Assembly (NCBI GenBank): GCA_964487295.1
Contig: CAZAQL010000001.1
Span: 13,091-77,090, forward strand
Direction of reading: 5' to 3'
From: an uncultured bacterium
Lineage (GTDB): Bacteria > Joyebacterota > Joyebacteria > Joyebacterales > Joyebacteraceae
DNA length: 64,000 bases
In this document: one piece after another, positions 11,724 to 48,692 of the stretch
How positions within the stretch are numbered: position 1 is the first letter of the stretch
Layout of the letters: every line of letters begins with the position of its first letter
Made by a program: the position numbers and the translations under genes
The notes under the pieces: model-generated
Told to the model about the DNA's origin: nothing
The model's database searches: none
Seen by the model: only the letters and a program-made list of their open reading frames with translations

Positions 11724-13526
11724 ATGAGCAACGGGTCGGAAGCAGACTCGGGCCGCCCGGCGGGCGACCCCGTGAACAGCGGTCGGGAGGACGGGACCGA
11801 CGCCAGGGAGGCGGGCTCCACCATCCGGGGCATTCCGGTGTCGCCGGGCGTCGTTCATGGCCCGGTGATGCTGTTCGGCGACATTCTCGACGAGGTCGAG
11901 ACTCGCGTCATCCAACCGTCGGAGGTCGACGCTGAGATCGAGCGGCTCCGCGAGGCCATCAGGCTCGTGAAGGAGGAGCTGGCGCGGGACGCCGAACGCA
12001 TCTCCGGTCAGCTCGGCCAGAGCGAGGCCGACATCTTCCTCGTTCACACGATGATCCTTGAGGACAAGAAGCTCGTCGAGGAGATCGAGGAGCGCATTCG
12101 CACCGAGCTCATCAACGCCGATGCCGTCGTCGCCCAGGAGATGAAGCGGGTCAGTGGCGTGCTCCGCGCGTCGGATGATGCCTATCTCATGGACCGTTCG
12201 TACGATGTCACCGACATCGGGAAGCGCGTGATCGAGCGCATGCTCGGGGTCTGGGCGCACTGTCCCCTGACTCACCCGATGATCATCGTCGCGCGCGAGC
12301 TTCGGGCGTCGGACACGGTGTCGATGGACCGCGGGAGAGTCCTCGGCTTCGTCACCGAGATGGGCGGCCGGCAGGCGCACGCGGCGATCCTGGCGCGCTC
12401 GCTGGGCGTGCCGGCGATCGTGGGGGCGCACGGGATCGTGGACCGGGTACGCTCCGGCGACACGCTCGCCGTCGACGGCTCGACGGGCGAGGTCCTGATC
12501 AACCCGTCGACCGACGTCCTCGCCCGGTACATGCAGAAGCAGGAGCAGGAGGCACTCGACTGGGCCGCGCTGGCGCCGTATCGCGAGGCGGTAACGCGGA
12601 CGGCCGATGGGACCCGCATCGAGCTCATGGCCAACATCAGCACGCCGGAGGAGTCGGTGGCGGCCACCGCTCTCGCCGTCGACGGTGTCGGACTGTTCCG
12701 GACCGAGATCCCGTTCATCGAGGCCGGTTTCTATCTGAGTGAGGACGCGCAGTACGCGGTCTACCGGAAGGCCGTCGAGGGCGTGGGCCGGGGCCCCCTG
12801 ACGATCCGGACGCTCGATGTGGGCGGCGACAAGTTCATAGGTCGCGAGAATCCTCTCGCGGAGCACAATCCGCACCTGGGGTACCGGTCGATCCGCGTGT
12901 CGCTCGACCACCCCGACGTCTTCCTCGAGCAGCTGCGCGCGATCCTGCGGGCCGGCGCGCATGGCGAGGTCAGACTGCTTCTTCCCATGGTGTCGGGAAT
13001 GGGGGAACTCCGCGCGGCACGGGATTTGCTCGATCAGGCGCGGGCATCGCTCGCGAAGGACGGAGTGCCGCACGCTCCGAACGTGCCGGTCGGGGTGATG
13101 ATCGAGATCCCCTCGGCCGTGATGGTCGCCGACCGGCTCGCGGCCGAGAGCGACTTCCTGAGCATCGGAACGAACGACCTGGTTCAGTACGCGCTGGCCG
13201 TCGATCGAGGGAACACGTACGTCGACCATCTCTATCGGCCGTACGACCCCGCCGTGCTCGCGCTCATCGACCGGACCGTGCGCGCGGCGCGGGACGCCGG
13301 CAAGCCGGTCGCGGTCTGCGGGGAGATGGCCGGCGTGACCGAGTACATCCCCCTGCTGCTCGGCCTCGGGGTGCGCGAGTTCTCGGTCGCCATGAGCAGG
13401 ATCCTCTTCGCGAGACGCGCGATCGCTCTGACCGACCTTGCCGAGGCTGAAGCCCTCGCCGCCCGGGCGCTCGGCGCCTCGACGGCGGCCGAGGTCGCCC
13501 TGGAACTCGGCATCAAGGGAGCATGA
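11724..13526 (+). CDS. ptsI: phosphoenolpyruvate-protein phosphotransferase (PTS enzyme I)
   Basis: Phosphohistidine region GGRQAHAAILARSLGVPAIVG. PEP-utilizing TIM barrel (IRTLDVGGDKF, SIGTNDLVQYALAVDR, CGEMAG). ~40-aa disordered N-terminal extension. GGAGG upstream of ATG 11724. Confidence 0.8.
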   Translation: MSNGSEADSGRPAGDPVNSGREDGTDAREAGSTIRGIPVSPGVVHGPVMLFGDILDEVETRVIQPSEVDAEIERLREAIRLVKEELARDAERISGQLGQSEADIFLVHTMILEDKKLVEEIEERIRTELINADAVVAQEMKRVSGVLRASDDAYLMDRSYDVTDIGKRVIERMLGVWAHCPLTHPMIIVARELRASDTVSMDRGRVLGFVTEMGGRQAHAAILARSLGVPAIVGAHGIVDRVRSGDTLAVDGSTGEVLINPSTDVLARYMQKQEQEALDWAALAPYREAVTRTADGTRIELMANISTPEESVAATALAVDGVGLFRTEIPFIEAGFYLSEDAQYAVYRKAVEGVGRGPLTIRTLDVGGDKFIGRENPLAEHNPHLGYRSIRVSLDHPDVFLEQLRAILRAGAHGEVRLLLPMVSGMGELRAARDLLDQARASLAKDGVPHAPNVPVGVMIEIPSAVMVADRLAAESDFLSIGTNDLVQYALAVDRGNTYVDHLYRPYDPAVLALIDRTVRAARDAGKPVAVCGEMAGVTEYIPLLLGLGVREFSVAMSRILFARRAIALTDLAEAEALAARALGASTAAEVALELGIKGA

Positions 13527-15921
13527 ACTGAACTACCGGATTCGTACAGACACCCTTCGGACAGCGCTTGTCGCGACCGTCGCGCTGGTCCTGGCGCTCG
13601 GGGCGTCCGAGGCGGACGCACGCTGGCGTGCGACCGCCGACTCCCTCTACGCGGTGGCCGAGCTCCATTACCAGGGGTCTGACTTCGTCACCGCGGCGCG
13701 TCTCTATGGAGACATCACGGTCCTCCTCGACGAGCAGGAGGAGGCCGGGCTCGGATCGTACTTCGAGAAGCTCGGCGCCCGGGCCGCCTTCCTCAAGGCG
13801 CGGGCGTTCGAACGGGCGGGAGACTGGGAGCAGGCGGAGAAGGCATACGCCTCGGCGCTCCCCCTGATGCGGCCCATCGGCGACGCCGTCAACTTCCGCA
13901 TGGCCGTCTGCCGGCTCGAGCAGGACGACCTCGAGGGCGCGACATCGCTCCTGCGCGCGATCGTCGAGGACGGCGAGGAGACCTCGTTCGACGAACGGGC
14001 GGTCGAGGCGCTCGGCGACGCGCACCGCCGCTTCTCGGAGTGGGACCTGGCCATCCAGTGGTATCGCCTGCTGCTGGCAAGGGCGCCATCCTACGACGAG
14101 CAGGCGCGAATCCACACCAGCATCGGGATGACGCACGAGGCTCGCGGCGACCGCGAGACCGCGATGCGCAGCTACGCCAGGGTCGTTGACGAGTTCCCCC
14201 GCTCGCGGCACGCGCACGATGCGATGAAGGAGGCCAGGAAGCTCTCTCGCTCATTCACCGATCGCTACCACCAGGGTCTTGTCCTCTACAACCGGAGGCT
14301 CTACGCCGACGCCGCCGAGTTCTTCGAGCACTACATCAGAAACGACGACGATGCGACATGGCGGCTCGAGGCTACCTACTACCTCGGACGCGCGAACCAG
14401 CGGCTCGGACGATACGATGCCGCCGCGAAGCACTACGCGGCCGCGATCGCTATCGGCGAGGGCGACGGGGGCGGAGACGGTACGGCGACGCCCGACAGCG
14501 AGGAGTACCATCTCGCCTGGCAGCGCCTCGCCTACGCGCGGCGCGTGCTGGGAGACGCCCAGGCCTGCCTGTGCACGTACGACGACTACGTGGCGAGGCA
14601 CCCGTCCGCCGACCACGCCGCAGACGTGCTCTGGGAGAAGGCGCGCTTCCTCGAGGACGAGAAGCGATGGGACGAGGCCGCGGAGGTCTTCGCCCTGCTC
14701 GCGGAGCGCTATCCGCATACGGAGAGGGCCGGTGACGCGCGATTCCGACGTGGGCTCGTGCTCTACAAGAACGGCGACCGCGAGGCCGCCGAGGCGGCGT
14801 TCACGCGCGACGCGTCCGTCGCGCGCGGGGAGGACCTCGCCCGCGCCGCCTACTGGCTCGGGAAGACCCGCGAGGCGCTCGGCCATCGGCGCCAGCCGCT
14901 CGTCGACTACCGGCGGGCCCGCGAGAGCGCGCCGGACTCGTACTACGGAAGACGGGCGTCGGAGAGCCTCGTGCGACTCGGGGTCGTGGATCCGGCGCCG
15001 GAGCGGGACCCTTCCACGGCCGCGCTCCGCAGGGCGCGCGTTCGCCCGGCCTGGGCGAACGGACCGGGCCGTGACTACGGCGCGTGGCTCGCCACGTGGG
15101 CCGAGCGCACCTACGTCCCGATCGAGTACATCGCCGTCCGGGAGCGGCTCATGGCGGACCGGTGGTTCGTCAGGGCCGACCATCTGCGCGCCGTCCACAT
15201 GGACGAGAACGCGGAGGAGGAGTTCTCACGGCTGGAAGAGAGCACGGCGTCGGATCCCACGATGCTCTCCATGCTCGTGGACTACTACGAGCGTTCGGGG
15301 CTCAACCGCCGCGGCATCCGCCTCGCCGAGCGCATCCTGCGCATGTCTCCCGTCGAGAACGCGAGTGAGGCGCCGGTGTATCTCGCCGAGCGCATCTTCC
15401 CACGGCATTTCGAGGACGTCGTCGAGCCCGAGTGCTTCGAGCGCGGGGTCGACGCGAACCTCTACTACGGGCTGATGCGGCAGGAGAGCGTCTTCGAGTC
15501 CGACGCGGTCTCGTGGGTGGGGGCGCGAGGGCTCTCGCAGATCATGCCCGCGACAGGCCGGTGGATCGCACGTCGTATCGATCACGGGCGGTTCCGGCTG
15601 GATCACCTCATGGACCCCTCGACGAACATCCGCTTCGGCGCGTACTACCTCGCCGAGCAGCTCGCTGAGTTCCAGGGCGATCCCCTCAGGGCACTCGCGG
15701 CCTACAACGGGGGACCGCGCAACGTCCCGCGGTGGTGGGGATACGGTGGGTGCGACGACGTTGACGTGTTCGTGGAGGACATCGGATACGCCGAGACCTC
15801 GGACTACGTGCGTCGCGTCTACGCCTACTGGCGTCTGTACGAGGAGATCTACGGGCGTTCTCCGGCGCCGGCGGCCGCAACCCCGTCATTCCGACCGGCG
15901 TCCGCCGCTTCGTCATCCTGA
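13438..15921 (+). CDS. TPR-repeat protein with C-terminal SLT-family lytic transglycosylase domain (secreted)
   Basis: SLT domain GLMRQESVFESDAVSWVGARGLSQIMPATG..IRFGAYYLAEQL..AYNGGP. Signal-like TALVATVALVLALGASEADA. The only ATG/GTG/TTG upstream of the signal peptide is ATG 13438, which overlaps ptsI by 89 nt, so the start is uncertain. Confidence 0.7.
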   Translation: MPRLKPSPPGRSAPRRRPRSPWNSASREHELNYRIRTDTLRTALVATVALVLALGASEADARWRATADSLYAVAELHYQGSDFVTAARLYGDITVLLDEQEEAGLGSYFEKLGARAAFLKARAFERAGDWEQAEKAYASALPLMRPIGDAVNFRMAVCRLEQDDLEGATSLLRAIVEDGEETSFDERAVEALGDAHRRFSEWDLAIQWYRLLLARAPSYDEQARIHTSIGMTHEARGDRETAMRSYARVVDEFPRSRHAHDAMKEARKLSRSFTDRYHQGLVLYNRRLYADAAEFFEHYIRNDDDATWRLEATYYLGRANQRLGRYDAAAKHYAAAIAIGEGDGGGDGTATPDSEEYHLAWQRLAYARRVLGDAQACLCTYDDYVARHPSADHAADVLWEKARFLEDEKRWDEAAEVFALLAERYPHTERAGDARFRRGLVLYKNGDREAAEAAFTRDASVARGEDLARAAYWLGKTREALGHRRQPLVDYRRARESAPDSYYGRRASESLVRLGVVDPAPERDPSTAALRRARVRPAWANGPGRDYGAWLATWAERTYVPIEYIAVRERLMADRWFVRADHLRAVHMDENAEEEFSRLEESTASDPTMLSMLVDYYERSGLNRRGIRLAERILRMSPVENASEAPVYLAERIFPRHFEDVVEPECFERGVDANLYYGLMRQESVFESDAVSWVGARGLSQIMPATGRWIARRIDHGRFRLDHLMDPSTNIRFGAYYLAEQLAEFQGDPLRALAAYNGGPRNVPRWWGYGGCDDVDVFVEDIGYAETSDYVRRVYAYWRLYEEIYGRSPAPAAATPSFRPASAASSS

Positions 15922-16493
15922 CCGGCGTCCGCTACCCTGTCGTCCTGACCGGCGTCCGCCACCCCATCGTCCTGACCGGCGTCCGCCACCCCATCGTCCT
16001 GACCGGCGTCCGCCGGGGATGTGACCGTTCGATCCGCCCAATCCTCCACTTCGAGGATCACGTCAGCGTCGTTTTTCGTCTGCGTCGCCAGCACGTAGGC
16101 CCAGTTCGCGGCCACCGCGACGAGCACGACGGCCCAGGCGACGAGACGCTCCCGTCGCGAGAGCGTCACGCGCAACACGGCGCCGCGGGCGAGCCTGGCG
16201 ACGCCCAGCACAGCGGCCGCGGGGATCACGACGAGGATGATCAGCGCATCGAGCGGGTTGGTCCTCAGAGCGAGCCCTGGGTGGCCCCTCAGTACGGCGC
16301 CGGTGCCTCGCAGAAATCCACACGTGGGACAGGGAAGACCTGTCAGTCTGCGAAAGAGGCAGATGACGGGACCGTCCCAGTGCGCGGTAGAGAGCGCGGC
16401 GAAGAGCCCGAACGCCAGGATGAGCAGGGCCGCCGCGACCGCGAGTCGGGGTGGCCGCGGTGCGCCGTTAATGCGTTCGAGTCGGATCCTCAC
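15849..16493 (-). CDS. DUF2752-like membrane protein (CPTCG motif) with repetitive acidic C-terminal tail
   Basis: GLPCPTCGFLRGTGAVLRG followed by TM helices. GTG start. The tail ADAGQDDGV x4 is encoded by the 27-bp tandem repeat. The 3' end overlaps the convergent SLT gene by ~70 nt. Confidence 0.6.
   Translation of the reverse strand: MRIRLERINGAPRPPRLAVAAALLILAFGLFAALSTAHWDGPVICLFRRLTGLPCPTCGFLRGTGAVLRGHPGLALRTNPLDALIILVVIPAAAVLGVARLARGAVLRVTLSRRERLVAWAVVLVAVAANWAYVLATQTKNDADVILEVEDWADRTVTSPADAGQDDGVADAGQDDGVADAGQDDRVADAGQDDEAADAGRNDGVAAAGAGERP
15917..16018. repeat. 27-bp tandem repeat x ~4 (CCTGACCGGCGTCCGCCACCCCATCGT)
   Basis: Direct tandem copies seen at 15917-15943, 15944-15970, 15971-15997 and a partial copy at 15998-16018. 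The array spans the stop of the SLT gene. On the minus strand it encodes ADAGQDDGV x4. Confidence 0.85.
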
Positions 16494-16524
16494 GACGAAT
16501 CCTGCCGGCTCACACCTCGCATCC

Positions 16525-16896
16525 CTACCAGCCGGAACCGATGGCGGCCATGATGAAGGCGAAGTACGCGGCGTAGATGATGAGCGCGAGCGCCTGCAGC
16601 GCCGTGCCGACGATGCCGCAGATCATGCCGGCGCGCGTCAGGTCGGTGCCGGCGGGGTCACGGAGCCCCTCCCGCATCTCGCGGAGGTCACCGGAGCCCA
16701 TGACCCAGGCCATGATGCCCAGGATCGCGCCGATGCACGGGATGACGAGCGACAGGATGCCGAGAACGAGAATGACGGCCCCGCGCTGAGGATTCATGGG
16801 AGCGGCTGAGGTCGACACGTTCTGTGTGATGGCCGCCTCCGGGAGGTTGGGATCCCGCGGCGACTGCTCCGGAGTGCGCTGCGAAGACTCCTCCAT
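16525..16896 (-). CDS. DUF4190-like small membrane protein (paralog 2)
   Basis: Two TM helices flank the conserved AWVMGSGDLREMREGLRDPAGTDLTRAGMICGI motif. Q/P-rich N-terminus. ATG with AGGAGA RBS. Confidence 0.7.
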   Translation of the reverse strand: MEESSQRTPEQSPRDPNLPEAAITQNVSTSAAPMNPQRGAVILVLGILSLVIPCIGAILGIMAWVMGSGDLREMREGLRDPAGTDLTRAGMICGIVGTALQALALIIYAAYFAFIMAAIGSGW

Positions 16897-16984: not shown

Positions 16985-17326
16985 CTACCAGCCGCCGGAA
17001 GCGGCGCCGATGGCGACGGCGAAGATCCAGATGATGAGCACGAGGACGTTGATCGCCACCGAGATGATCCCGCAGATCATGCCGGCGCGCGTCAGACCCT
17101 CGCCCGCGGGATCTCTGAGTCCCTCGCGCATCTCGCGGAGGTCGCTCGACCCCATTACCCAGGCAATGATGCCCGTGATGACACAGACCACGAGGCCGAT
17201 GATGCCCAGCGCCAGGATGACGCCGCCGCGGTGCGGCTGCATCATCCGGGGCGTTCCACCCACCGGCTGCTGCGCCGCAGGCTGCGCCTGCTGTCCCTGC
17301 GACTCGTACTGCGGGGTCTCCTGCAT
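16985..17326 (-). CDS. DUF4190-like small membrane protein (paralog 1)
   Basis: Motif AWVMGSSDLREMREGLRDPAGEGLTRAGMICGI. ATG at 17326, 2 nt after the iscU stop, with GGAGG upstream. The track ORF extends to a TTG at 17413. Confidence 0.7.
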   Translation of the reverse strand: MQETPQYESQGQQAQPAAQQPVGGTPRMMQPHRGGVILALGIIGLVVCVITGIIAWVMGSSDLREMREGLRDPAGEGLTRAGMICGIISVAINVLVLIIWIFAVAIGAASGGW

Positions 17327-17328
17327 GG

Positions 17329-17724
17329 CTACTCCTCGGATGGGGTGGACCGCTGCTTCTCCATGTAGTCCCTGATCGCCTTGTGGAGCGCGTCGGCTGC
17401 GAGGTTGGAGCAATGCATCTTCTGCGGCGGGAGGCCGTCCAGCTCGCTGGCGACGTTCTCGCGCGTGATCTCGAGCGCCTCCTCGAGCGTCTTTCCCTTC
17501 GCCATCTCGGTGACCATGCTGCTGGTGGCGATGGCCGAGCCGCAGCCGAACGTCTTGAACTTGATGTCGGTGATGACGTTGTCCTCGACCTTGATCTGGA
17601 TCTCCATGAGGTCGCCGCAGACGGGGTTTCCCTCGACCCCGACGCCGTCCGGTGATTCGAGCTCACCCACGTTCCGCGGGTTCCTGAAGTGCTCGAGGAC
17701 CTTCTCGCTGTAGATGGGAGTCAC
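17329..17724 (-). CDS. iscU: Fe-S cluster assembly scaffold IscU/NifU
   Basis: YSEKVLEHFRNPRNVG, GNPVCGD, FGCGSAIATSS and HCSNLAADAL are classic IscU strings. GTG at 17724 with AAAGGAG 9 nt upstream gives 131 aa. The track ORF extends to a TTG at 17787. Confidence 0.8.
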   Translation of the reverse strand: MTPIYSEKVLEHFRNPRNVGELESPDGVGVEGNPVCGDLMEIQIKVEDNVITDIKFKTFGCGSAIATSSMVTEMAKGKTLEEALEITRENVASELDGLPPQKMHCSNLAADALHKAIRDYMEKQRSTPSEE

Positions 17725-25219: not shown

Positions 25220-25249
25220 GAGGAGGCTGTCGCGCGCGGCAGCCTCCTC
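25220..25249 (+). terminator. hairpin (10-bp perfect stem GAGGAGGCTG/CAGCCTCCTC, 10-nt loop) after 24648..25169
   Basis: Seen directly in the sequence. No U tract follows; it is immediately followed by the 53-bp tandem repeats. Confidence 0.4.
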
Positions 25250-25375
25250 GCTTATCCGGGCTCCGTCCGGCGGGGTTGCCGGGGAAAGGCGGAGCCGCCG
25301 TCGCTTATCCGGGTTCAGTCCGGCGAGGTTGCCGGGCAGAGGCGGAGCCGCCCCCGCTTATCCGGGCTCAGTTCA
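25250..25375. repeat. 53-bp tandem repeat x 2.4
   Basis: GCTTATCCGGGCTCCGTCCGGCGGGGTTGCCGGGGAAAGGCGGAGCCGCCGTC at 25250-25302. A near-identical copy at 25303-25355. A partial third copy from 25356. Confidence 0.85.
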
Positions 25376-28759: not shown

Positions 28760-28920
28760 CGCCGGTGACGCCGCCGGTGCAAGTGCGGTGACGCCGCCGG
28801 TGCGAGTGCGTTGAGACCGGCTGTGGGAGTACGGTGAAACCGCCGGTGCAAGTGCGGTGACGCCGCCGGCGCGAGTGCGGTGAGACCGGCTGTGGCAGTG
28901 CGGTGACGCCGCCGGCGCGA
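28760..28920. repeat. ~23-bp tandem array x 7 with two alternating unit types (GTGCGGTGACGCCGCCGGYGCRA / GTGCGKTGAGACCGGCTGTGGSA)
   Basis: Units at 28783, 28806, 28829, 28852, 28875, 28898 plus a partial at 28760. Lies between the divergent GT-B gene and the 29013 gene. Confidence 0.85.
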
Positions 28921-29012
28921 GGACGTTGGTGCGGGCCCGCTGTTGAGTCGGGCGCAGCGTAGGTGTAGACTGCGTGTGTCCTTCCACGGAAACGCGAGCG
29001 ACGGAGGTGCGC

Positions 29013-33390: not shown

Positions 33391-33459
33391 CCTGCCTCCT
33401 GGCGGCCATATCGGCTGCAAAGCCTGCCCACCAGCGCATCGCCGCCGGGGCGGCGCCGG

Positions 33460-33514
33460 ACCATCGCCGGGCCATCGCCGGGCCATCGTCGGGCCATCGC
33501 CGGGCCATCGTCGG
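33460..33514. repeat. 11-bp tandem repeat x 5 (GCCATCGYCGG)
   Basis: Five contiguous copies immediately upstream of the M14 gene promoter. Confidence 0.85.
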
Positions 33515-33535
33515 GCCGCGCTGAGGGGTCCCTCA

Positions 33536-38985: not shown

Positions 38986-39119
38986 CCGGAGCCATCCGGG
39001 GCGGGCGGCGTCTTGTCGCATTCGCGGCGAGCCCGTCAGAGCGGTCGGTGCCTCGTCGCATTCCCGGCGAACCCGTCTGGGCGGCTGGCACCTCGATGTG
39101 CCCACCCGGAGCCATCCGG
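38986..39119. repeat. composite repeat: two identical 14-bp palindromes (CCGGAGCCATCCGG) flanking a 40-bp direct repeat pair
   Basis: Palindromes at 38986-38999 and 39106-39119. Direct repeats GTCGCATTCGCGGCGAGCCCGTCAGAGCGGTCGGTGCCTC (39014-39053) and GTCGCATTCCCGGCGAACCCGTCTGGGCGGCTGGCACCTC (39055-39094). Confidence 0.8.
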
Positions 39120-47021: not shown

Positions 47022-47283
47022 CGCGGACTCCTGGTCAGAAGTGTCTGCTCCGAACGAAGTTTCTGATCGGACCGCGCGCGTGCGATCCGGGGGAGCGTCG
47101 GGGCCTGGCGCGAGTATGCGCGCGGCGCGTCCGCCCCGTCAAGCGTCAGGCCCTCCGCCGTCCGGTCTCGGAGCGGCGACTGCCGTCAGACCACGGTGGG
47201 CACATGCCGTCAGGCCAAGGGGACGGCCTGCTGTACGGCCCGCGAGGCTGCCAAGACCCGCAGGGTGAAGCCCGGCCGTTCGC

Positions 47284-47312
47284 TTGACACCCTGGCTGCG
47301 GTGGCGATAGAG
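47284..47312 (+). promoter_or_regulatory. candidate promoter TTGACA-N17-ATAGAG
   Basis: Consensus -35. Weak -10. About 30 nt upstream of GTG 47340. Confidence 0.3.
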
Positions 47313-47339
47313 TCCGCGCACACCAGGGAGGTGCGGAGC

Positions 47340-48239
47340 GTGACGATGACCGTGACAGGCTATTCAAGGACGCGCCCGGCGCGCGCGGGAGAGGGTGCTG
47401 CCCGGAGCGGCCCGGCGCGCGAGGGAGACGGCGATACCCGGACCGGCCCGGCTCGCGCGGAAGCGAGCCGCACGGCGCCCCGGCGCCGGCGCCGCGCAGT
47501 GGGTGCGGCGGCGACTTGCGTCGGGCTCGCGGCGCTCGGTCTTGCGCTCCTCGGTCCGTTGCCGGTTCGAGCGGCGGAGCCTCTGTCGAGTGCGGAGCTC
47601 GCCGAGCTTCTGGAGCGCTACAATTCGTTCGTCAGACACGAGCGCTGTCTGATCGAGACGCTTCGCGTGGTCCAGACCATGGTGGATCCGCAGGAGGACG
47701 GCTCGGAGCGGACCGCGGTCGCCGAACTCACGTACATCGCCGGCAGCGGTATGGTCCGCGACGTACTCTCCTCGGACCTGGCCCATCCTGAGGGTGACTA
47801 CACGCTGGACAGCGTGATCGGACCCGAGCTTCCAGGCGGGGAGTACGACATCGAGCCCGTCGGCCGCGACACGGTGGACGGCGAGTCCGCGTTCCACCTG
47901 CGTGTGACCGCGCTCGACCGAGACAGGGATCACTTCGACGGCGAGATCTGGATATCCGAGATGGACGCCTCGCCCGTCCGCGTCCGGGGACGCGTCGCCG
48001 ACCCGCCCTTTCCCGTGGTCCTCATCACCTTCGACAAGCGGTTCGAGCGGCTCGCGCCGCAAGACGTTCGTGGCGAGGAGTGCCCGACCGCTCTCCGACT
48101 GCTCCGGCGTCACTCCGGCGAGGCCGAGGTGAACCTGCTGCTCGGGAGGAAGCGCGGGCAGCGTCACATCTTCTACGACGACTACGTCGTGAGGGTTCGA
48201 CCTCCGGACGGCGGGCCGACCGGAAGCACAGCCGATTGA
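47340..48239 (+). CDS. hypothetical secreted protein (Arg-rich TAT-like leader)
   Basis: GTG 47340 lies 8 nt after GGAGG; ATG 47346 is also in frame. Leader ..RRRRRAVGAAATCVGLAALGLALLGPLPVRAA. The mature part has ordinary globular composition. The antisense ORF 47364..48626 is R-rich junk. Confidence 0.5.
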   Translation: MTMTVTGYSRTRPARAGEGAARSGPAREGDGDTRTGPARAEASRTAPRRRRRAVGAAATCVGLAALGLALLGPLPVRAAEPLSSAELAELLERYNSFVRHERCLIETLRVVQTMVDPQEDGSERTAVAELTYIAGSGMVRDVLSSDLAHPEGDYTLDSVIGPELPGGEYDIEPVGRDTVDGESAFHLRVTALDRDRDHFDGEIWISEMDASPVRVRGRVADPPFPVVLITFDKRFERLAPQDVRGEECPTALRLLRRHSGEAEVNLLLGRKRGQRHIFYDDYVVRVRPPDGGPTGSTAD

Positions 48240-48263
48240 GGGATGTCCGCCGCCGGCGGGCAG

Positions 48264-48360
48264 GCATGGGGAGTCCGTCGCCGGCGGGTACGCATGGGGA
48301 GTCCGCCGCCGGCGGGTGCGCATGGCGAGTCCGCTGCCGGCGAGTTCGCATGCGGTCGGG
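48264..48360. repeat. 28-bp tandem repeat x ~3.5 (GCATGGGGAGTCCGCCGCCGGCGGGTGC)
   Basis: Units at 48264-48291, 48292-48319 and 48320-48347, a degenerate fourth copy, and a partial copy starting at the stop codon (48237) of the upstream gene. Confidence 0.85.
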
Positions 48361-48692
48361 CGGCCTCCGATGGCCGAACGCTGCCGAATTCGATTGACAG
48401 AATTGCGCGAGTTCTGTATGTGTCCATTATGACACAGCTCAGGGGCTGCGGCTGACCGTTCCTGGGCGCCCCGACAGGGGTGAGGAGCCGCTCTTGGGCG
48501 GCTCCTGTCTGAGATTGGGAGGAGCGCGGCGCTTACCGTGTTCCTCCCGATTCGTCTGAGTGCGGCGCGGACCCTTCTCCTCCCGATTCGTCTGAGTGAG
48601 CGGCGGCGGCATGAGAAACGCCCCACCCGAGGGTGGGGCGTCTCCGTGGTGATCGGTCGTCCCTGGGCGGGTCATCCCGCCCGGAGCCGCTG

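Follow-up and report, generated by a model that had tools for sequence, protein, structure and literature searches.

A 27-bp minisatellite between convergent DUF2752 and lytic transglycosylase genes, probably captured as a recent C-terminal extension through loss of a stop codon

A stretch of 64,000 nucleotides from an uncultured bacterium of the Joyebacteraceae (hereafter the window; 67% GC) carries a 27-bp tandem repeat at the junction of two convergent genes, a plus-strand gene encoding a lytic transglycosylase with TPR and SLT domains and a minus-strand gene encoding a DUF2752 membrane protein. The open reading frame (ORF) of the latter runs through the whole repeat and ends in an acidic, nonapeptide-repeat tail. 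An earlier note on this DNA, made from the sequence alone, had described four copies of the unit and a perfectly repetitive tail, and had called the repeat contingency-locus-like. We consider it probable that the repeat is a lineage-specific minisatellite of the intergenic spacer which was captured by loss of the DUF2752 stop codon, the tail being recent and unconserved read-through.

Tandem Repeats Finder (TRF) delimits an unstranded array of period 27 and 5.4 copies at 15868-16014 (score 203, 86% matches, 0% indels). The unit CCTGACCGGCGTCCGCCACCCCATCGT has 3 matches in the window when up to 3 mismatches are allowed, against 0.00 expected, as none of 100 dinucleotide-preserving shuffles contained a match. 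Two of these matches are exact (15944-15970 and 15971-15997) and the third, at 15917-15943, differs at three positions. A truncated copy of 17 nt occupies 15998-16014, and beyond 15917 two further diverged copies extend towards 15868, on the SLT side. The array thus forms a gradient, perfect at its 16014 end and degenerate at its 15868 end, with about 2.6 identical copies and a perfectly periodic stretch of about 71 bp. Head-to-tail units of at least about 10 bp, with an identity beyond chance, place it among the minisatellites or variable-number tandem repeats (VNTRs). The tandem array previously described is therefore real, but only two of its four copies are exact, the others being diverged or truncated. 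Neither the unit nor the linker that separates the array from the DUF2752 core recurs elsewhere in the window or in the corresponding loci of relatives, where only chance matches of 10-13 nt were found.

That the repeat lies in frame with the DUF2752 ORF on the minus strand is borne out by the ORF and by translation of the units. Two identical units (15987-16013 and 15960-15986, minus strand) read GCG GAC GCC GGT CAG GAC GAT GGG GTG, that is, ADAGQDDGV. They are followed on the same strand by four progressively diverged units spanning 15852-15959, which encode, in this order, ADAGQDDRV (3 differences), ADAGQDDEA (5), ADAGRNDGV (5) and AAAGAGERP (12 of 27). What had been taken for a perfectly repetitive tail consists of two perfect units and a series of decaying ones.

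The full DUF2752 ORF covers 15849-16493 on the minus strand and codes for 214 amino acids, from a GTG start to a TAG stop at 15849-15851. It matches the Pfam family DUF2752 (PF10825) over residues 45-90 with E=2.8e-12 and 47 bits (cut-off, 27), and no other Pfam family at E<=0.01. Pfam, the homologue alignment and AlphaFold2 together delineate a conserved core of residues 1-139 (16077-16493, minus strand) with three predicted long helices and a CPxCG motif; the cysteine C45 and the TGLPCPxCG motif (T51-G52-L53-P54-C55, C58 and G59) are invariant in the alignment. A linker of 63 nt follows (16014-16076, minus strand; KNDADVILEVEDWADRTVTSP), for which no homologue has a counterpart and whose GC content is 0.57, with a GC content at third codon positions (GC3) of 0.67 as compared to about 0.87 in the genes of the window. 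Provided that the sequence is right, linker and array together add 75 residues to the core, 22 of which are D or E and 5 K or R, the tail peptide reading for instance TVTSPADAGQDDGVADAGQDDR. The protein consequently departs from the family architecture, in which proteins of about 130-140 residues end just past the last hydrophobic helix; its nearest homologues measure 128-139 residues.

In an AlphaFold2 model built from a 10-sequence alignment, the core reaches a pLDDT of 70-90 and the last helix runs on through the linker (residues 113-158, pLDDT about 72), whereas the repeat part (residues 161-214) is devoid of secondary structure with a pLDDT of 47-55. Five arginines in the 16-residue N-terminus and six in the loop of residues 100-116 suggest, by the positive-inside rule, a three-helix topology with the N-terminus inside, which would place the tail outside the cytoplasm. 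Calcium-binding repeats were rejected after inspection by eye: ADAGQDDGV cannot be rotated into the GGxGxDxUx nonapeptide of RTX proteins and beta-rolls, neither this motif nor those of the thrombospondin type have Pfam support, and the modelled tail contains no strands.

Evidence for stop loss comes from homologues. A word-indexed search of 5.8 billion proteins returned a single record identical to the window protein over its full 214 residues (P0001, NCBI-sourced); the other DUF2752 matches are 128-144 amino acids long and at most 65% identical, or at most 52% when more than half of the query is aligned. The nine homologues that were aligned all end at NWAYVLATHT-stop or 1-2 residues off, a position corresponding to residues 131-139 of the window protein (NWAYVLATQT). 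HMMER found 1942 hits among 1.84 billion representative sequences. Nearly all of the best 150 of these are 130-140 residues long (about 136), with matches ending at query residues 135-139, and about 130 of them terminate within a few residues of the family end position. About 12 of the same 150 do carry C-terminal tails, of 18-76 amino acids; the eight that were read are mutually unrelated and unlike the tail of the window protein. One tailed DUF2752 protein, P0048, contains a short VDSAP repeat. No homologue of the tail itself was found among the 1.84 billion representatives, its only match being a low-complexity, unrelated protein of 560 residues.

The genomic context of the nearest homologues leads to the same conclusion. 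Their contigs share the gene order NifU (then a small ORF), DUF2752, then in the opposite orientation TPR-SLT, followed by PtsI and a pyridine-nucleotide oxidoreductase gene. After 16 more metagenome loci had been fetched by alignment of the SLT C-terminus, the junction could be compared across 13 syntenic loci with both genes, representing 11 distinct junction sequences. In all 13, the DUF2752 stop falls 0-7 codons past the residue aligned to residue 139 of the window protein and the SLT stop 3-9 codons past the conserved EIYG motif, the distance from stop to stop ranging from -28 to +173 nt (-4 to +30 nt in the closest relatives). In the window, a lysine codon, AAA (16074-16076, minus strand), stands where the syntenic homologues have TAG or TGA, at that codon or within 1-7 codons. 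Only the window, among the loci compared, combines a DUF2752 protein longer by 75 residues, an SLT protein longer by about 18 and a 73-nt overlap of the two genes. Since the relatives' ends are known for both genes, the stretch of about 209 nt between the family-typical gene ends of the window (the 63-nt linker, the 147-nt array and about 12 more bases) is spacer by position, and the extension therefore occupies former 3' non-coding DNA without homologues; no sequence homology to the relatives' spacers was detectable. The earlier note had suggested looking for similar tails among DUF2752 homologues, of which none has one, and had regarded homologues that stop before the repeat at a conserved position as the mark of read-through; this is essentially the pattern found, with AAA at that position in the window. 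The SLT C-termini of the metagenome loci are 59-77% identical to that of the window, none being closer. A scan of genome contigs with the SLT protein for closer relatives yielded distant loci only, and exact look-ups of P0001, of the DUF4190-like neighbour and of NifU gave no record of a second copy.

The opposite gene is extended as well. The TPR-SLT ORF (13438-15921, plus strand; 827 amino acids; SLT domain, E=2.3e-24) ends at a TGA at 15919-15921; this stop and the DUF2752 TAG at 15849-15851, both given by the earlier note, agree with the ORF calls. It continues for 22 residues past EIYG, as compared to 3-9 in relatives, so that about 17-18 extra codons and the TGA (15868-15921, plus strand) lie in the degenerate copies. 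Every intact unit contains a TGA in the SLT frame, and because unit 5 has CGA instead, the SLT frame reads one unit further. The two ORFs overlap by 73 nt (15849-15921, unstranded), with coinciding third codon positions, and the TAG of DUF2752 is the antisense of the SLT codons for Ile-Tyr (ATC TAC). The array does sit at the convergent junction and spans the SLT stop, as had been stated, but the overlap takes in degenerate copies only and the perfect copies lie outside it. The TGA codons of the units share their phase with the position at which a GRSP-stop would be located. Derivation of the unit from the SLT 3' end, stop included, was considered and set aside as speculation only, for it requires three substitutions in the oldest copy. 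In one relative (L009, around 800-830), the SLT 3' end reads GRASPLDVASP-stop where two others (L007 and L015) have GRASP-stop, which looks like an 18-nt, duplication-like insertion.

We propose the following course of events. A 27-bp unit would have been duplicated in tandem within the short spacer between the convergent genes, likely by replication slippage or unequal recombination, the newest and identical copies arising on the DUF2752-proximal side. Loss of the DUF2752 stop (AAA in place of TAG or TGA) would then have opened the frame into 63 nt of former spacer, now the linker, and into the array, which would be read through entirely because its period is a multiple of three and the unit contains no stop in the DUF2752 frame, up to a fortuitous TAG antisense to the conserved SLT EIY codons. 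The usual SLT stop would have been lost too, adding about 18 codons of the decayed array end up to the first TGA. Should a unit later be gained or lost within the perfect stretch, the length of the DUF2752 tail would change by 9 residues, with the frame kept and the SLT stop unmoved; at most, the array could vary in length in this way as a VNTR. The tail is presumably translated, and presumably neutral or nearly so. The extension appears to be evolutionarily very young and bears no sign of conserved function.

Is the tail composed like a coding sequence? Its GC3 as a whole is 0.72, as compared to 0.82-0.93 in the genes of the window. Codon log-odds, computed in six frames after training on 13,238 codons of the window, amount to 0.20 per codon for the tail and 0.34 for its antisense, whereas in-frame coding segments of equal length average 0.56 (sd 0.24); the score does not tell the DUF2752 frame from its antisense. 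The open frame of the tail carries almost no weight, because 41% of 75-codon segments in any of the six frames lack stops; this fraction rises to 53-65% for segments of 30-48 codons, a length closer to the count of independent codons that a repeat contains. A few observations speak against mere read-through. The DUF2752 core itself scores only 0.06 in codon log-odds, so that the low score of the tail is weak evidence. No stop interrupts the frame, the period equals 3n and four units have retained ADAGQDD. Furthermore, 8 of the 13 differences among units 3-5 fall at third codon positions (p=0.035), an excess that could reflect constraint at the protein level. Several of these differences are common to units, leaving about 5-6 of 10-11 independent events, a proportion that would fall short of significance. 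As the differences are shared and the positions are third in the SLT frame as well, we rejected the excess as evidence of constraint.

A competing explanation sees in the acidic nonapeptide repeat a C-terminal module under selection, the length of which would be tuned by slippage of 27-bp units in the manner of an adaptive VNTR or a contingency locus; such a tail, disordered, might face the periplasm, bind cations or serve as a spacer. The in-phase open frame, the identical 214-residue protein on record at NCBI and the excess of third-position differences (8/13) are compatible with this scenario, as are the two perfect units, a sign that duplication was active recently. Other DUF2752 proteins can bear C-terminal tails, P0048 with its VDSAP repeat among them, and the predicted helix continues through the linker. 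Yet no homologue possesses the tail, not even the nearest syntenic relatives, and the older copies have accumulated charge-changing replacements (G to R, Q to R, D to N and GV to EA), which indicate decay rather than conservation. The composition of the linker is intergenic-like, open frames are expected by chance, Pfam recognizes nothing but DUF2752 and the RTX consensus is not matched. Additionally, a unit of 3n nucleotides in only about 2.6 identical copies is unable to switch expression. We hence regard a selected module as unlikely. Even less likely, in our opinion, is its most far-reaching form, a newborn acidic nonapeptide-repeat domain of a membrane protein, presumably periplasmic, slippage-variable and under selection, with its distal units coded on both strands alongside the C-terminus of the transglycosylase.

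Alternatively, the tail might be an artefact of sequencing or assembly. A T5/A5 homopolymer (16072-16076) directly follows the ATQT codons, and six-frame translation shows that removal of one nucleotide leads to ATQT-KTTLT-stop and addition of one to ATQT-KKRR-stop, that is, to 4-5 further codons. As both alternative frames stop at once, the whole tail rests on the run being exactly 5 nt. Were it in reality A4 or A6, or were the copy number of the repeat mis-assembled, the array would be purely intergenic, and the one-nucleotide change would yield a DUF2752 protein of 143-144 residues, inside the family range (up to 7 extra residues). The organism is uncultured and appears to be known from a single contig, and short-read assemblers have difficulty with tandem arrays of about 150 bp. 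Against an artefact, the ORFs of eight syntenic neighbour genes are uninterrupted and of sufficient length when set beside those of relatives, so that indel errors are infrequent in this assembly; five A residues make a short homopolymer, and the perfectly periodic stretch of about 71 bp is shorter than typical large assembly k-mers. An artefact thus seems rather improbable to us. Finally, the array could act at the DNA or RNA level, as a substitute for a bidirectional terminator, as an array of protein-binding sites or as a structured 3' untranslated region of the convergent transcripts. It occupies a site where convergent genes need termination, in a region (15500-16600) where our scan found no terminator- or promoter-like sites, and it shows a marked strand asymmetry (GC skew, -0.19). 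The 27-bp unit nevertheless lacks an inverted repeat, the folding energy is ordinary relative to shuffles (z = -0.52 and -1.53 for the two strands), Rfam has no match here or anywhere else in the window, the unit recurs, chance 10-13-mers apart, neither outside the array in the window nor in the relatives' loci, and spacers of -4 to +30 nt suffice in the closest relatives. We hold such a role to be very unlikely. A small hairpin is present in the linker (16038-16060; AUCCUC and GAGGAU, 6-7 bp), followed 12 nt later by the T5 run of the plus strand; this could be what is left of an earlier terminator, although it does not satisfy the criteria of the terminator scan.

A spacer minisatellite that came to be read through by stop loss also fits the distribution of tandem repeats in and around this genome region. 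TRF reports seven arrays with a score of at least 100 in the 64-kb window (1.1 per 10 kb), an unusually high density, the relatives' loci having two in about 75 kb. Judging from a map of ORFs and GC3 combined with Pfam, five of the six other arrays appear intergenic: a 53-bp repeat at 25236-25372, one reported with periods of both 23 and 69 bp at 28763-28921, an 11-bp repeat at 33443-33517, a 40-bp repeat at 39001-39095 and a 28-bp repeat of 4.0 copies at 48240-48352, the last at a convergent junction and starting directly past a stop at 48239. Four of these five have periods that are not multiples of three (53, 11, 40 and 28). The remaining one, of 36 bp (47374-47460), is inside an ORF at 47196-48239 without a Pfam match. 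Among the relatives, one locus (L013, 3086-3170) has its own repeat, 30 bp in 2.8 copies, in the spacer between the SLT and DUF2752 genes and outside both ORFs, whereas the closely related L011 is without it; their spacers measure 173 and 142 nt, respectively. This difference lends indirect support to the idea that copy numbers at the junction may vary between strains. Together with the intergenic arrays of the window, this repeat indicates that tandem repeats arise in the spacer without any link to coding. The SLT/DUF2752 spacer is consequently a recurrent site of tandem duplication, and the 27-bp array is set apart only by its 3n period and by the missing stop upstream.

Comparison with described systems helps to position this array. 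Bacterial minisatellites and VNTRs such as the MIRU-VNTR loci of Mycobacterium tuberculosis likewise consist of head-to-tail units of tens of bp, situated at gene borders in genomes of high GC content, with identical adjacent copies and decayed edge copies, and gain or loss of whole units is expected of them. Tandem repeats in promoters vary in copy number within isogenic M. tuberculosis populations, a variation that short reads hide (PMC12817950). Unlike those, the present array is known from one sequence, lies at the 3' ends of convergent genes instead of in a promoter, and is entered by both ORFs. In yeast and Drosophila, C-termini extended de novo by loss of a stop codon have been documented (PMC4494051). 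Our case shares with these the stop conserved in homologues, the sense codon in its place, the run through formerly non-coding DNA to the next chance stop and an added segment that is without homologues and predicted to be disordered. It differs in that a tandem repeat makes up two thirds of what was captured and in that the extension overlaps the coding sequence of a convergent neighbour that has itself lost its usual stop. Shifts of stop codons are described for prokaryotic genes, too.

The resemblance to contingency loci is more superficial. These loci, known from Neisseria, Haemophilus and Helicobacter, rely on many units of 1-7 nt and switch by frameshift or by altered promoter spacing (PMC5084427, PMC4081817). 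The array likewise is a gene-associated tract that could change length by slipped-strand mispairing, but its 27-nt units are in frame, at the 3' end of the ORF, and a long tract of identical short units is replaced by two perfect units and a 17-nt partial one. Because the unit is a multiple of three, a change in copy number can neither shift the frame nor turn the gene off, and no effect on promoter spacing arises at this position; the comparison drawn by the earlier note is unsupported as far as a switch is concerned. With respect to the DUF2752 family, residues 1-139 fit the model, the CPxCG motif and the helical layout, and the synteny with a DUF4190-like gene is common to relatives, the 214-residue length being what separates the protein from those that end directly past the last helix. 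A search for literature on DUF2752 found no paper in the library searched.

Some neighbouring features deserve mention. Between NifU and DUF2752, two tandem paralogous genes on the minus strand (16525-16896 and 16985-17413) encode small membrane proteins that match DUF4190 weakly, below the Pfam cut-off. One database protein, P0016 (163 amino acids), combines the C-terminal half of a DUF4190-like protein and a DUF2752 domain in a single ORF, a fusion suggestive of a functional connection of the two families. Elsewhere in the window, the 28-bp array and a gap of about 340 nt without a called gene beyond it together make up 48240-48690. An AT-richer segment with TTGACA, a GC hairpin (48612-48640) and, at about 48545 and 48582, two copies of a 20-nt direct repeat (CCTCCCGATTCGTCTGAGTG) were noticed in the gap. 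Rfam at the gathering score has no match in this gap (up to 48690), and a laxer scan gave one weak, sub-threshold match (b55, E=0.49). The gap could harbor an undescribed small RNA. No tRNA genes were found in the window.

The array opens neither a new mechanism nor a new family, and a real repeat receives an ordinary explanation. The density of intergenic minisatellites in the window is maybe the better lead for studying repeat dynamics in uncultured high-GC bacteria. The junction nonetheless constitutes a cautionary case, as an in-frame repeat at the end of an ORF in a genome of 67% GC mimics a designed repetitive tail. If translated, the DUF2752 tail would illustrate cleanly, for bacteria, how a minisatellite can give rise to a protein C-terminus, a short stretch of it being read on both strands.

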